12,296 nucleotides of DNA from a virus. Lineage: Duplodnaviria; Heunggongvirae; Uroviricota; Caudoviricetes. Each line of letters begins with the position of its first letter. Position 1 is the first letter of the stretch. Of the stretch, positions 1 through 12,296 are shown piece after piece. Below the pieces are notes generated by a model, which saw only the letters and a program-made list of their open reading frames with translations, did not search any database and had not been told where the DNA came from. The translations under genes and the position numbers were made by a program. Location of the stretch: the IMG/VR virus record IMGVR_UViG_2541047680_000005; one strand, given 5' to 3'.

Positions 1-1027
1 CGGTATTCCCTTTTCCTTCTGTGGCTGATTTCCGGTCATTATCCAGTGCGCAGGTGATTTTTGCCGCCGGGTACATGTTTACCAGTTGTTCCACAACATG
101 AACCATGTTGTTAGCGGATACAGCGACAACCACAGCGTCAAAGCGTTTATCTTTTTTCGTGGCAAGCCAGATGGATGCACCAGTAGCAAAACCTTCTGTA
201 ACAGCGATGTTTTGCGCCCCTTTTAGCTCACCGATAACAAAGCAGGCACCGACGAAATCGCCGCTGGTTACGGCGCTGGTCTGGTATTTTCCACCTTGTT
301 TGTCGATTCGCTGCCAACCCACAATACGACCATCGTAACGACCGTCCAGGTGAGCCAGAGGGATAGCCATATACGTGGTTGGCCCCCTGCTCCATTTTGC
401 GCTGTCGTGACTGGTCACGCGACGCACATCACACGAATTAAAAACGTCACGAATACCTTTTTTAATCGCATATGGCCACGAGCCGTCTTCTGCAGGAGCA
501 TGTTCCCACGCGCTGTGAAATGCCAGCCATCCCAGCAAACGTTCATGGTCCATTTGGTTGTTTTTCAGGTCATTAATTCGTTTTTGTTCTTCACGGCGAC
601 GACGTGCTTCGGCCTGACGTTCTATTCTTGCCCGTTCTTCTTCCGGTTGTGCGACCACGGTCGCATTATTCCGCTGTTGCTCACGGCGATATTCAGAAAA
701 CAGGAAGGAGAAACCGCTCCATGAGCCAGCATCGCTGCCTTTATGGACGAAGTTAATGAACGGATAATCAATCCCTTTGCTGTGTTCCAGCCGGGAGTAA
801 ATTTCTACGCGTCCTTTGAGGCTCTTCTCGAGAGCTTCTGGAGATGTTTTATTGTATGAAGAGTAACGCTCAACACCCCCGCGAGGGTTGAGTTGGATGT
901 TGTCGGAACAGGCAGGCCAGTTGATACCAGCCATCTGTGCCAGCTCGGTTAGTTCATCCCGTGCTGCTTCAATTAGCGAGAACGGATCGCTGCCAAAGCG
1001 ATCCGCATAGAAATCGTTTAATGTCAT
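1..1027 (-). CDS. Replication primase (Toprim / EGYATA-type, RepA-like or P4-alpha-like), N-terminal ~342 codons; the 3' end lies beyond the left window edge
   Basis: Hand translation of the minus strand from ATG at 1027..1025 (MTLNDFYADRFGSDPFSLIEAARDEL...) stays open to position 1. It is absent from the ORF track because no stop lies inside the window. Contains VTEGFATGASIW (EGYATA-like primase motif) and ITCALDNDRKS (DxD, Toprim-like). Track ORFs 105..338 and 296..724 on the plus strand are its antisense shadow. Confidence 0.7.
   Translation of the reverse strand, partial: MTLNDFYADRFGSDPFSLIEAARDELTELAQMAGINWPACSDNIQLNPRGGVERYSSYNKTSPEALEKSLKGRVEIYSRLEHSKGIDYPFINFVHKGSDAGSWSGFSFLFSEYRREQQRNNATVVAQPEEERARIERQAEARRRREEQKRINDLKNNQMDHERLLGWLAFHSAWEHAPAEDGSWPYAIKKGIRDVFNSCDVRRVTSHDSAKWSRGPTTYMAIPLAHLDGRYDGRIVGWQRIDKQGGKYQTSAVTSGDFVGACFVIGELKGAQNIAVTEGFATGASIWLATKKDKRFDAVVVAVSANNMVHVVEQLVNMYPAAKITCALDNDRKSATEGKGNT
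649..666. repeat. 18-bp palindrome copy 1 (GTGCGACCACGGTCGCAT), candidate ParB/SopB-type centromere site
   Basis: Core TGCGACC-AC-GGTCGCA read directly; lies inside the primase coding sequence, where it encodes ATVVAQ on the minus strand. Confidence 0.6.
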
Positions 1028-1076
1028 TTTTTAGCCATTCCATGCGAATTATGTTTTTTCGGGTTGAAAAAATCCG

Positions 1077-1143
1077 CAGGAGCAGCCACAATAAACGCAT
1101 CTTGAATTGACGGAATCCGTCGCGTTGTTGTGGCTGCTTCCTG
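1077..1143. repeat. Long-range inverted repeat CAGGAGCAGCCACAA / TTGTGGCTGCTTCCTG (15-16 bp arms, one-base bulge, ~36-bp loop) in the primase upstream leader
   Basis: Read directly: 1077..1091 is the reverse complement of 1128..1143 except for one extra T. Lies 50-115 bp upstream of the primase start codon. Confidence 0.5.
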
Positions 1144-1150
1144 AAAAGGA

Positions 1151-1178
1151 CCCGAGTTTGCCGACTCGGGTTTTTTTT
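1151..1178. terminator. Intrinsic terminator-like hairpin CCCGAGT-TTGCCG-ACTCGGG followed by T8
   Basis: 7-bp GC-rich stem (1151..1157 / 1164..1170) with TTTTTTTT at 1171..1178 on the plus strand. On the minus strand the same stem is followed by UCCUUUUC, so it may also insulate the repressor transcript from the primase gene. Confidence 0.55.
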
Positions 1179-1272
1179 CGTCTTTTTTCTGCTGCTGTAA
1201 CCTGAGTCAACCCACAGAACATATGCCCTGCATTAAACCAGATTTACAGCAAACAATAAACCCCGTATTAAG

Positions 1273-1891: not shown

Positions 1892-1907
1892 TTATAGCTG
1901 GCTATAA
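1892..1907. promoter_or_regulatory. Operator O1: perfect palindrome TTATAGC-TG-GCTATAA
   Basis: 7-bp perfect inverted arms read directly; sits in the repressor/cro divergent intergenic region. Confidence 0.65.
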
Positions 1908-1917
1908 AATTTATTTA

Positions 1918-1933
1918 TTATAGCTGGCTTTAA
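1918..1933. promoter_or_regulatory. Operator O2: TTATAGC-TG-GCTTTAA (one mismatch to O1)
   Basis: Same half-site as O1, 26 bp downstream. Confidence 0.6.
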
Positions 1934-1940
1934 ATGCGAT

Positions 1941-1956
1941 TTATTGCTTATAATAA
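1941..1956. promoter_or_regulatory. Possible operator O3 (degenerate, TTATTGC-TT-ATAATAA) overlapping a TATAAT -10-like hexamer
   Basis: Degenerate copy of the O1 half-sites 23 bp after O2; TATAAT at 1949..1954 lies immediately upstream of the cro-like ATG at 1961. Confidence 0.35.
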
Positions 1957-2882: not shown

Positions 2883-3135
2883 ACAAGTTATGTTCAGGAA
2901 ACCGTCGAAGCCAGAATTAAGGTATTCGGGGGTAAGAAATGAATATGTTATCTGGTGTCCAACTTGTGGTTACAGGACACGACCAGATAGTAATAAGCAG
3001 TCTGTAATTGCCGATTGGTATTTATCAAATCAGCCAGGTAATAAGCATATAGAAAATCTTTGGATTAAGCGTTACTTGGAAATCAGAGAGGGTGCGACCG
3101 TGGTCGCACAAGAAAATGAAAATAACGCCATTTAA
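2815..3135 (+). CDS. Small Cys-rich (CxC...CxxC) putative zinc-ribbon protein
   Basis: Track ORF. Contains FCLC and CPTCGY. Start is uncertain: ATG 2815 overlaps the upstream gene by 68 nt, and the alternative ATG at 2890 lacks an SD and would drop the first Cys pair. The last 15 codons include one copy of the 18-bp palindrome. Confidence 0.4.
   Translation: MRRRSAVKSSNAIGQEVPFCLCKQVMFRKPSKPELRYSGVRNEYVIWCPTCGYRTRPDSNKQSVIADWYLSNQPGNKHIENLWIKRYLEIREGATVVAQENENNAI
3092..3109. repeat. 18-bp palindrome copy 2 (GTGCGACCGTGGTCGCAC)
   Basis: Perfect 8-bp arms with GT centre; at the 3' end of ORF 2815..3135, where it again encodes ATVVAQ. Confidence 0.6.
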
Positions 3136-6238: not shown

Positions 6239-6526
6239 TTAATAAACAGCGCGAATATCGATGGTTGCGCCGCAGGCATGAGCATATTTAGCCAAAGTTT
6301 TCATACTTGCCCCTAAAGGATTGCTTTCCAGGCGGCTGATGGCTGACGGTCGCAACCCCATTCGTTCAGCCAGAGCTGATTTCGTTAAACCTGCTCTTTC
6401 CCTCATTTCGTATAACATTTCGACCATCTCCAGCTCTTTGTCGGCCTCTTCATATCCTTTGACGGCTTCTGGAGTGTTGAGGAGTTTTTCTTTTACTTCG
6501 TTAAACGGGATGCCTTTCGCTTTCAT
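6239..6526 (-). CDS. HigA-like antitoxin (XRE-family HTH)
   Basis: 95 aa, with HTH segment LTKSALAERMGLRPSAISRLE. The start overlaps the toxin stop (ATGA at 6526) and the gene lies downstream of the toxin, the HigBA-type order. Confidence 0.8.
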   Translation of the reverse strand: MKAKGIPFNEVKEKLLNTPEAVKGYEEADKELEMVEMLYEMRERAGLTKSALAERMGLRPSAISRLESNPLGASMKTLAKYAHACGATIDIRAVY

Positions 6527-6837
6527 CAGTTCATCTCCTTCAGGCGAGTTCTGGCGATTTCGATAGCCTTCACCGGTGTTTTCTGTGTCTTTTTTACAAA
6601 TGCATGCAATAGATAAATTTCGTTACCAGTCGCGTAGGCGTACAGCGTTCTTGCGATGTTTTTATCCCCTACTCGTAGTTCAAAAAGCCCTCCACCTATT
6701 ACACGGCTATGGGGCATCTTCAGTTTGTTGCCTTCCTTCTCCAGTCGCTCAATTAATCTGGTCATGCGACCTCGCAAATCATCTGGTAGTTCAAGCAGTT
6801 CATCCAGTGCTGCAGGGTGGGTTATCACGTTAAACAT
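6526..6837 (-). CDS. RelE/ParE-superfamily toxin of the HigB / phage Gp49-like group
   Basis: 103 aa; size, toxin-first order and overall sequence resemble the Gp49-like (DUF891) killer proteins as I recall them; the family is named after phage N15 gp49. Confidence 0.75.
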   Translation of the reverse strand: MFNVITHPAALDELLELPDDLRGRMTRLIERLEKEGNKLKMPHSRVIGGGLFELRVGDKNIARTLYAYATGNEIYLLHAFVKKTQKTPVKAIEIARTRLKEMN

Positions 6838-7470: not shown

Positions 7471-7488
7471 GTGCGACCACGGTCGCAC
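7471..7488. repeat. 18-bp palindrome copy 3 (GTGCGACCACGGTCGCAC, arms extend to 10 bp)
   Basis: Begins 6 bp after the stop of gene 7238..7465, at the head of the structured noncoding region. Confidence 0.6.
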
Positions 7489-10510: not shown

Positions 10511-10528
10511 GTGCGACCGTGGTCGCAC
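10511..10528. repeat. 18-bp palindrome copy 4 (GTGCGACCGTGGTCGCAC)
   Basis: 20 bp after the stop of the DUF4406-like gene. Confidence 0.6.
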
Positions 10529-10730: not shown

Positions 10731-10748
10731 GTGCGACCGTGGTCGCAC
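10731..10748. repeat. 18-bp palindrome copy 5 (GTGCGACCGTGGTCGCAC)
   Basis: 24 bp upstream of the start codon of gene 10772..11632; with copy 4 it brackets a ~200-bp noncoding stretch. Confidence 0.6.
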
Positions 10749-12205: not shown

Positions 12206-12249
12206 TCCATTACAAAAGCCATTCGCTACTGAGTGCTGATGAATCCCCT

Positions 12250-12271
12250 AATGATTTTGGTAAAAATCATT
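12250..12271. repeat. AT-rich palindrome AATGATTTT-GGTA-AAAATCATT
   Basis: 9-bp perfect arms read directly, 45 bp after the stop of the last gene. Confidence 0.45.
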
Positions 12272-12296
12272 AAGTTAAGGTAGATACACATCTTGT

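Follow-up and report, generated by a model that had tools for sequence, protein, structure and literature searches.

Among the described systems closest to the locus reported here is phage N15, in which RepA primes replication, replication initiates within repA itself, a centromere site is also contained in that gene, and copy number is raised by AntA (PMC2847241). An origin inside repA, and an autonomously replicating clone carrying repA only, have been reported both for N15 (PMC2847241) and for the Yersinia phage PY54 (PMC10612081). The sequences of the N15 inverted repeats IR1–4 are given in PMC7205306, and binding of the prophage repressor CB to OL represses repA and lowers copy number in N15 as well as in phiKO2 (PMC4997575).

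The whole 12,296-nt stretch of DNA analysed here (the window; Table 1) is collinear with Escherichia phage PhiR46_1 (PV340565) at 99.3% identity over 12,235 of its 12,296 bases, the last 61 bases (12236–12296) falling beyond the aligned PhiR46_1 stretch. YDC107_1 (CP025712) matches across the whole window at 99.0% identity with gene order unchanged, and PhiR46_1, YDC107_1 and approximately 17 E. coli plasmid records of ∼46 kb are essentially the same element. By megablast, positions 3–2272 are 77% identical to a stretch of N15 in which genes 37 (repA), 38 (cB), 39 (cro) and 40 (Q) have matching order and orientation, and this collinearity upholds the N15-like layout proposed in a preliminary description of the sequence, with repA and cB leftward and cro rightward. 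At the DNA level N15 (AF064539, U45242, U63085) is nevertheless only ∼77% identical to the window, as is phiKO2 across repA-cB-cro-Q. The replication and immunity layout of the window is also that of Klebsiella phage phiKO2, its relatives NAR688, KpLi5 and 48ST307, and PY54. The window, which begins inside repA, can confidently be labelled as the right arm of an E. coli telomere phage (an N15-like linear plasmid prophage, with hairpin ends), and its five palindromes as SopB centromere sites. The layout is already known, being textbook for phage N15, and databases already contain the sequence itself, under phage PhiR46_1 and under E. coli plasmids of ∼46 kb; as a discovery the layout matters little, and its value lies in the annotation of the window.

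Table 1 Features annotated in the window, in order of position
Feature	Position	Strand	Basis or remark
5′ part of repA, codons 1–342 of ∼1331	1–1027	minus	open frame, homology
DND, Toprim DxD metal-binding motif, aa 329–331	35–43	minus	P4 alpha alignment
EGFATG, EGYATA-motif variant with Toprim glutamate, aa 278–283	179–196	minus	P4 alpha alignment
SopB-site palindrome 1, TGCGACCACGGTCGCA, inside repA	650–665		N15 IR1; encodes ATVVAQ, aa 122–127
repA ribosome-binding region	1032–1044	minus	mapped from N15 U45242
Pinc-like promoter, TTGAAA-17-CACAAT, for putative RNA antisense to repA leader	1064–1092	plus	
Long imperfect leader mRNA hairpin, variable apical loop	1078–1141	minus	arms 1078–1097/1122–1141, ∼20 nt
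Leader inverted repeat, as DNA	1081–1094/1125–1138		14-nt arms, 93% complementary, 30 nt apart
Putative countertranscript, ∼80 nt: 5′ tail, stem-loop I, terminator	1099–1178	plus	promoter and terminator positions
Bidirectional rho-independent terminator hairpin in repA leader, 16 pairs	1143–1178		N15, phiKO2 annotation
OL1, putative 16-bp CB operator	1221–1236		mapped from N15 U45242
Putative repA promoter PL	−10 1232–1237, −35 1255–1260	minus	overlapped by OL1/OL2
OL2, putative 16-bp CB operator	1244–1259		mapped from N15 U45242
cB, prophage repressor, 198 aa	1273–1869	minus	Pfam HTH_3 E 3e-11, weak Peptidase_S24
OR operator region between cB and cro	1892–1956		repeat; position matches N15 OR1–3
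OR candidate site, TTATAGCTGGCTATAA	1892–1907		
OR candidate site, TTATAGCTGGCTTTAA	1918–1933		
cro	1934–2182	plus	Pfam P22_Cro E 2e-22
Third OR candidate	1941–1956		picked by eye
Q antiterminator, directly after cro	2172–2882	plus	Pfam Phage_antiter_Q E 2e-84
SopB-site palindrome 2	3093–3108		positional counterpart of N15 IR2 and second phiKO2 site
SopB-site palindrome 3	7472–7487		
SopB-site palindrome 4	10512–10527		
SopB-site palindrome 5	10732–10747		

The leftmost reading frame of the window is almost certainly the start of repA, the N15-type replication gene. It opens with an ATG at 1027 and continues without a stop until it leaves the window at its left end; the part inside the window codes for the N-terminal region together with the greater part of the Toprim primase domain. 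A Toprim/EGYATA-type primase running leftward behind the repressor had been recognised in the preliminary description, correctly so given the minus-strand frame and its alignment with the alpha protein of P4, in which AEGYATA and DRD of P4 alpha pair with EGFATG and DND of RepA (BLASTP, E 1e-6, 26% identity over 115 aa). EGFATG is nearly invariant among the aligned homologues. The fragment is 99.7% identical to the ‘primase protein’ of PhiR46_1, 84% identical to N15 gp37 over 345 aa, and 83.5% and 50% identical to the RepA proteins of phiKO2 and PY54, respectively. PHROG 4913 (‘replication’) matches it at E 3e-146 over profile positions 4–327 of 1290, and PHROG DNA primase families match down to E 3e-23. 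Homologues of the RepA domain are found in 21 phage records, comprising N15, phiKO2, PY54, P840, VP882, phiHAP-1 and Klebsiella, Enterobacter and Escherichia relatives, and those of the 21 that could be checked against annotation or papers are telomere phages.

Against the Pfam Toprim_3 model (PF13362, gathering threshold 27.2 bits) both the fragment (19.4 bits) and full-length PhiR46_1 RepA (22.4 bits) score below threshold, the weak match spanning aa 274–334 with DND included, and a precomputed PF13362 hit is present in two database homologues. We assign the Toprim domain from its motifs, the alignment with P4 alpha and the fold matches, and not from the Toprim_3 model. Only 14 proteins, mostly truncated, were returned by the homologue search behind structure prediction, which accounts for the shallow alignment and the poor AlphaFold model of the fragment (pLDDT 63, pTM 0.42, low confidence); the best PDB fold matches, to the T7 gp4 primase-helicase (E 3e-3), are for that reason only supportive. 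A sequence search of the PDB gave nothing significant, the best match being herpesvirus UL9 (E 0.22). Primase, helicase and origin-binding functions are reported within one polypeptide both for P4 alpha and for N15 RepA. P4 alpha and the RepA of the window share a homologous Toprim primase core, with the EGYATA-like and DxD motifs aligned, but BLASTP detected no second significant segment between P4 alpha and the fragment, and the C-terminal region of P4 alpha is not matched by the helicase part of N15-type RepA, which matches Herpes_ori_bp and CyRepA1 instead.

The helicase, origin, telN, telRL and sopAB lie outside the window, and for the helicase, telN and sopAB we draw on near-identical genomes as proxies. 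In PhiR46_1 the RepA ORF extends to 1331 aa and includes a helicase region with the Walker A and B motifs GMGSGKST and DEAT, scoring 25.2 bits against Pfam Herpes_ori_bp (cutoff 20) and 258.9 bits against NCBIfam CyRepA1 (cutoff 200, E 1e-76). The fragment had been predicted to be the N-terminal domain of a large RepA-like primase-helicase, and the leftward continuation into a helicase domain is found as predicted, in a genome 99.3% identical to the window rather than in the source contig. PhiR46_1 likewise supplies the protelomerase and telomeres anticipated for an N15-like element: a 633-aa protelomerase with the TelK/ResT Pfam domains (TelK_N, muzzle, catalytic and stirrup, E 1e-25 to 1e-50), annotated telL and telR, and ParA/ParB. 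A short ORF, in an element with an integrase and with neither protelomerase nor partition locus, is the opposite of what PhiR46_1 shows, and no integrase is found among its 64 annotated features.

We propose that a single gene, repA, is responsible for replication of an N15-like linear plasmid prophage whose ends are hairpins, its ∼1331-aa product probably consisting of an N-terminal Toprim primase of P4-alpha/EGYATA type, then a central Walker A/B helicase and then a C-terminal region, the latter two encoded beyond the window. As in N15, RepA would start bidirectional replication from an origin inside its own gene, and the protelomerase TelN would then resolve the replicated telomeres.

The immunity, Q and lysis genes are of lambdoid type and the primase domain is distantly homologous to that of P4 alpha, as would also be expected of an integrated lambdoid prophage, or of a P4-like integrative element, in which an acquired P4-alpha-type primase-helicase had replaced O/P and which resided in the chromosome by means of an integrase; P4 itself integrates, with an integrase and attP. 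We regard this as highly improbable. The sequence is carried by 18 of 5,426 complete E. coli genomes, at 22 places, every one of them on a plasmid and not one on a chromosome, and the collinear genome has the protelomerase, telL/telR and ParA/ParB with no annotated integrase. The fragment is far closer to N15 RepA than to P4 alpha (84% identity versus 26% over 115 aa), and the window holds five N15-type SopB sites. Since every E. coli match falls in a record labelled plasmid, and the name given to the gene by PGAP is ‘plasmid replication protein, CyRepA1 family’, one might alternatively think of a circular non-phage plasmid with a CyRepA1-family replication protein, its phage-like genes being remnants. 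This we find scarcely credible: the nearest record was deposited as a phage genome and has telL/telR together with a full lambda-like head, tail and terminase gene set; Q, holin, lysozyme and Rz are intact in the window; and the record sizes of ∼46 kb match N15.

The lambda O/P module occupies the same functional niche as repA, that of early replication genes beside the immunity region, but lies downstream of cro, whereas repA, transcribed leftward, is found left of the repressor. Where lambda has cII-O-P the window has Q directly after cro, and a RepA/TelN route taking the place of the lambda O/P-DnaB route would explain this. The Pfam scan found no O, P, DnaB-like or DnaC-like family in any ORF of the window, in agreement with the earlier remark that no such genes follow cro; to the right of cro it identified Q, Lar-like, exonuclease, DUF977 and DUF4752 ORFs, a toxin-antitoxin pair and a methylase, as well as holin, lysozyme, Rz and DUF4406. 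The repressor itself is 78% identical to N15 CB.

The palindrome TGCGACCACGGTCGCA occurs five times in the window, against 0.09 copies expected by chance. Its form, TGCGACC-NN-GGTCGCA, agrees with the core of N15 IR1–4. The copy inside the primase ORF, already seen in the preliminary description, is flanked by sequence matching the N15 IR1 oligonucleotide (PMC7205306, Table 4), and is situated 362–377 nt from the repA ATG, compared to 365–380 nt in N15; the corresponding spot in the phiKO2 record is annotated as a ‘putative plasmid partitioning site’. Judged by its sequence, the repA palindrome is a SopB-binding centromere site equivalent to N15 IR1, which, as one of five in the window, would serve SopAB partition. 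N15 is described with four SopB sites in its whole genome, whereas this window alone holds five.

The promoter of repA would lie immediately past the end of cB and drive leftward transcription. The positions of OL1 and OL2 and their T-A-N10-T-A form are conserved with N15, although the sequences differ. Since both operators overlap the putative repA promoter, the prophage repressor would also set plasmid copy number, and we infer such control of repA by CB in the window element from homology and position.

Within the 200-nt repA leader the terminator hairpin would be transcribed first and the long hairpin next. The terminator is strong on the plus strand; on the minus strand its U-run is weaker. 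It does not vary among the related loci (n=49). The inverted repeat beyond it had been described with 15-bp arms and a ∼36-bp loop, which is approximately right, the arms measuring 14–20 nt and the loop 24–30 nt. All 20 distinct variants retain the long hairpin, at ΔG of −27 to −40 kcal/mol and z of −3.2 to −7.6 relative to shuffles of the variable part. These values derive from per-sequence folds and shuffles, used in place of RNAalifold, which missed the long hairpin when run on 29 leaders aligned with MAFFT, since the variable arm is misaligned by indels; the alternative that RNAalifold offered, a pairing between invariant segments, is beyond covariation testing and was set aside. Pairing of the invariant UCC of the hairpin loop with the repA Shine-Dalgarno sequence was also considered, and dropped as it gives only 3–5 bp.

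The PY54 leader has the same architecture of promoter, terminator hairpin, 15-nt inverted repeat with a 29-nt loop, and Shine-Dalgarno sequence, and carries a TACAAT hexamer in the proximal arm of its hairpin. Beyond the GCYACAAT motif in that arm, no nucleotide similarity between the PY54 and window leaders is apparent by eye.

Hairpin stability is alike on both strands (mean −33.3 versus −31.9 kcal/mol), the sense strand being the more stable in 18 of 29, so strand-specific selection for an RNA is not demonstrated. This similarity, together with the invariance of one repeat arm in 49 of 49 loci, would suit a site acting as DNA, a cruciform or a binding site for a protein such as RepA or CB, in place of an antisense-coupled RNA hairpin. 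We consider a DNA site unlikely, however, as the −10 of a conserved antisense promoter falls on the invariant arm, and the distal arm shows bulges and indels that an RNA helix would tolerate but that would upset a symmetric site for a protein. The PY54 leader, moreover, unalignable by eye, keeps both the order of terminator then hairpin and the TACAAT in the proximal arm.

On the strand opposite the repA leader, the N15 record U45242 carries annotation of a putative Pinc and an antisense terminator. Both elements are present in the window, identical base for base to the N15 annotation, and Pinc was found independently by a consensus scan (9/12 matches). The Pinc hexamers are invariant in the 49 related loci, and the −10 sits in that arm of the inverted repeat which is nearer to repA. 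This promoter and the plus-strand terminator would yield a putative countertranscript of ∼80 nt, whose body, ∼45 bp, varies among the 49 loci between invariant flanks, with at least 19 distinct sequences. The predicted topology is the same in 19 of 19 distinct variants, and thermodynamic support for the fold is weak (z +0.2 to −2.8). Chimeras of non-cognate halves of stem-loop I are nearly as stable as the cognate forms (−10.4 versus −11.5 kcal/mol), and in view of this lack of cognate preference and the weak z scores we do not claim covariation of stem-loop I. Rfam gave no match at gathering score for the putative countertranscript; the sub-threshold matches, among them miRNA precursors and NsiR1, involve families with no connection to phage or plasmid replication and are most likely due to chance. 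A search of the literature other than the N15 repA study of Mardanov and Ravin (2006) returned no description of the countertranscript, which appears never to have been characterised, its only annotation being as ‘putative’ in a 1996 GenBank record.

The mosaic of invariant and variable leader segments and the putative countertranscript suggest that telomere phages have a hitherto unexamined form of copy-number control. Tentatively, and with the greater weight of probability against it, a real ∼80-nt countertranscript might form a second layer of copy-number control beside CB, in which the ∼45-bp body would act in target recognition and its variants could define specificities of replication control, with an effect on which telomere phages can live together in one cell. 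Control through the leader bears on N15-derived linear cloning vectors (pJAZZ) and on phage co-residence. A role of the variable segment as the incompatibility determinant was considered and rejected, since Sop or CB could be responsible instead. PhiR46_1 differs from the window by a few point changes, two of which fall in the distal arm of the hairpin in the leader; in N15 the hairpin loop and distal arm are of another sequence type than in the window, and the phiKO2 group and PY54, which have other hosts, carry variable leader segments different from that of the window element.

The minus-strand open reading frame at the left end of the window is the beginning of repA; the window itself represents the right arm of a linear plasmid prophage of the N15 type, already deposited at 99% identity. 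In megablast alignments, positions 1–2300 are 99.0% identical to Escherichia phage PhiR46_1 and 98.0% identical to YDC107_1, with N15 and phiKO2 aligning at ~77%. PhiR46_1 is collinear with the entire window (99.3% over 12,235 of 12,296 bases); the alignments to PhiR46_1 and YDC107_1 both stop at position 12235, leaving the last 61 bases (12236–12296) outside. The preliminary description had likened the layout to that of N15, and the alignment bears this out: N15 genes 37 (repA), 38 (cB), 39 (cro) and 40 (Q) align in the same order and orientation, the RepA fragment being 84% identical in protein sequence to N15 RepA over 345 residues and the repressor adjoining repA 78% identical to N15 CB. 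In Pfam the repressor ORF is a cI-type HTH protein with a weak S24 match, Cro is P22-type and the Q antiterminator is matched at E 2e-84. Lambda O/P-like and DnaC/DnaB-like genes had been described as absent, and indeed Pfam scans of the remaining window ORFs match no lambda O/P, DnaB-like or DnaC-like family; these ORFs comprise Lar-like, exonuclease, DUF977, DUF4752, DNA methylase, holin, lysozyme, Rz, DUF4406 and unmatched proteins, and a Gp49/HTH toxin-antitoxin pair with counterparts in N15 genes 49 and 48.

Features of the window, with strand where assigned
Feature	Position (nt)	Strand	Remark
repA 5' part	1-1027	minus	open frame exits window at left
DND within ALDNDR	35-43		RepA fragment aa 329-331
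EGFATG within VTEGFATGAS	179-196		RepA fragment aa 278-283
Palindrome 1 (SopB-site type)	650-665		inside repA ORF
Pinc hexamers	1064-1069/1087-1092		mapped from U45242
Terminators	1140-1178		mapped from U45242
OL1	1221-1236		mapped from U45242
Putative PL hexamers	1232-1237 and 1255-1260		mapped from U45242
OL2	1244-1259		mapped from U45242
Palindrome 2 (SopB-site type)	3093-3108
Toxin-antitoxin-like pair	6239-6837	minus	Gp49/RelE-like (PF05973, E 2e-29), then HTH_3 protein
Palindrome 3 (SopB-site type)	7472-7487
Palindrome 4 (SopB-site type)	10512-10527		non-coding stretch after DUF4406 gene
Palindrome 5 (SopB-site type)	10732-10747		non-coding stretch after DUF4406 gene

Translation of positions 1–1027 gives 342 uninterrupted codons from the ATG at 1027 to the window end. 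The assignment of this frame to an 'EGYATA-type' primase stands up to a BLASTP comparison with P4 alpha, in the variant form EGFATG: fragment residues 220–331 align with P4 alpha residues 162–262 (E 1e-6, 26% identity), placing AEGYATALT of P4 alpha opposite TEGFATGAS and ADRD opposite LDND. PHROG DNA primase families also match the fragment (E 3e-23, 2e-19 and 1e-9). The Pfam model Toprim_3 stays under its gathering score of 27.2 for both the fragment (19.4 bits) and full-length PhiR46_1 RepA (22.4 bits), and no NCBIfam model matches the primase half of RepA, so routine annotation leaves the primase domain at the N terminus of telomere-phage RepA unrecognised. A PDB sequence search found no close relative with a solved structure. 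An AlphaFold2 model of modest quality (pLDDT 63, pTM 0.42), built from a shallow alignment of 11 sequences, has T7 gp4 primase-helicase as its top two PDB fold matches (E 3e-3, ~155 aligned columns), which is weakly consistent with the primase assignment.

The helicase, protelomerase and partition locus lie beyond the window and were examined in the near-identical complete genome of PhiR46_1. Rather than ending shortly beyond the window, the repA ORF there is 1331 aa long, with a Walker A motif (GMGSGKST) at about residue 533 and a DEAT box at about residue 623; Herpes_ori_bp matches above the Pfam cutoff, and the NCBIfam CyRepA1-family plasmid replication protein matches residues 525–1034 (E 1e-76). 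The PGAP name for repA, 'plasmid replication protein, CyRepA1 family', comes from a model matching only these residues. The first PhiR46_1 gene, annotated merely as 'hypothetical', encodes a protelomerase of 633 aa in which all four Pfam domains of TelK/ResT are matched (E 1e-25 to 1e-50). The record places telL and telR at the ends, with ParA/ParB adjoining telR. Its head, tail and terminase genes form a complete lambda-like set, and its 64 annotated features include no integrase. Among 5,426 complete E. coli genomes, a 2.3-kb query is present in 18, and all 22 places lie on plasmid records, mostly of ~46 kb, with none on a chromosome. Homologues of the N-terminal 342 residues are encoded by 21 phage records, namely N15, phiKO2, PY54, P840, VP882, phiHAP-1 and their Klebsiella, Enterobacter and Escherichia relatives. 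Gene content, plasmid-only places and the homologues in these phages together support the N15-type interpretation; the preliminary description is correct in observation and interpretation, and the biology is already known.

Several records carry the repA region twice, often inverted, and some of them exceed ~46 kb (61–92 kb). They are the E. coli plasmid records H29, H32, H33 and H36 and the IMG/VR contigs with the locus pairs L007/L038, L010/L041, L015/L020, L029/L033 and L040/L048, together with a duplicated site within L016. Assembly that runs through a hairpin telomere would be expected to give such records, as would replicative dimers joined head to head.

Five copies of the palindrome TGCGACCACGGTCGCA occur in the window, against 0.09 expected from shuffles, one of them within the primase ORF as initially described; copies 4 and 5 are just 220 bp apart. 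The entire PhiR46_1 genome contains the same five and no others, whereas four sites are described genome-wide in N15, whose centromere consists of inverted repeats IR1–IR4 with the common core GTGCGACC-NN-GGTCGCAC (PMC7205306 Table 4). Positions 637–649 match the flanks of the N15 IR1 oligonucleotide CTTCTTCCGGCTG... (PMC7205306 Table 4), and the copy inside repA lies 362–377 nt from the repA ATG, compared with 365–380 nt for N15 IR1. A centromere site within repA is reported for N15 (PMC2847241), and phiKO2 has a 'putative plasmid partitioning site' annotated at the same place in repA and a second after Q. From the match in core and flanks, the corresponding position and the phiKO2 and N15 records, the palindrome at 650–665 is an IR1-type, SopB-binding centromere (partition) site that lies within coding sequence, where it specifies ATVVAQ (residues 122–127); the pLDDT of the structure model in this stretch is below 50.

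Leader features were placed by alignment to the N15 immB record U45242, in which the cB-repA interval holds OL1 and OL2 overlapping the putative repA promoter PL, a leader terminator, an antisense-RNA terminator, and Pinc, the promoter of a putative antisense RNA. The Pinc hexamers and terminator of N15 are identical to those of the window, and a generic promoter/terminator scan independently recovers TTGAAA-17-CACAAT and the terminator. In N15 and phiKO2, experiments have shown binding of CB to the OL sites, together with repression of repA and a lower copy number (PMC4997575), and the AntA antirepressor raises copy number about tenfold (PMC2847241); by homology, the same would apply to the window phage. 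Relative to N15, OL1 (ATATGCCCTGCATTAA) differs at 8 of 16 positions and OL2 (TTACAGCAAACAATAA) at 4 of 16; the OR sites, TTATAGCTGGCT(A/T)TAA, closely resemble those of N15. Given the OL differences and a CB of 78% identity, immunity specificity might be partly unlike that of N15.

The inverted repeat described in the repA leader is present, and is part of the control region already annotated in N15, but its dimensions are revised from 15-bp arms with a ~36-bp loop to 14-nt arms (1081–1094 and 1125–1138; 93% complementary) spaced 30 nt apart. In the mRNA it is predicted to form a long hairpin, the fold widening to imperfect ~20-nt arms (1078–1097 and 1122–1141) with the Pinc -10 in the repA-proximal arm; the full 201-nt leader folds at z = -4.2. 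Exact-match scans of IMG/VR, anchored on the Pinc block and independently on the terminator, gave essentially the same loci (48 and 47, 49 in total). The Pinc/proximal-arm block and the terminator are invariant in 32 unique leader sequences; the loop and distal arm (1100–1140, ~45 bp) vary in sequence and length among the 49 loci, in at least 19 distinct versions, around an invariant TCC triplet (plus strand GGA) in the loop. All 20 distinct variants retain the long hairpin (dG -27 to -40 kcal/mol; z -3.2 to -7.6 when the variable part is shuffled for comparison), indicating that pairing is maintained, while similar stability on both strands means that selection on RNA rather than DNA cannot be shown. 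RNAalifold (leader alignment A3, window 1036–1195; columns 36–53 versus 140–155 and 156–199) additionally proposes other partners for the invariant proximal arm, among them an A-rich segment, likewise invariant, on the 5' side of the terminator and, for the UCC that ends the arm, the GGA of the repA SD region; these pairings are beyond the reach of covariation because every position is invariant.

On the opposite strand, a plus-strand RNA of ~1099–1178 is predicted to have one shape in 19/19 distinct variants, with a 12-nt tail leading into a single stem-loop and then the terminator. This stem-loop is barely above shuffles (z +0.2 to -2.8), and half-swaps between variants cost it little energy; an ~80-nt countertranscript is plausible but unproven. 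No Rfam family covers the leader arrangement, and we found no study testing it or the antisense RNA in the accessible literature. N15 and phiKO2 are reported to be incompatible (PMC4488713) despite unlike variable leader segments, so the segment, if it determines incompatibility at all, does not do so alone. What is left of interest is the putative countertranscript with its variable body.

PY54, whose RepA is only 50% identical to that of the window, has a leader (1266–1500 of its locus) in which similarity by eye is limited to one short motif. The order of elements is nevertheless that of the N15 type: promoter, GC-rich hairpin (the antisense-strand terminator), then an inverted repeat of 15 nt with a 29-nt loop, carrying TACAAT in the repA-proximal arm in place of the N15-type CACAAT. 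That this order is kept despite the dissimilar leader sequence speaks for a conserved function.
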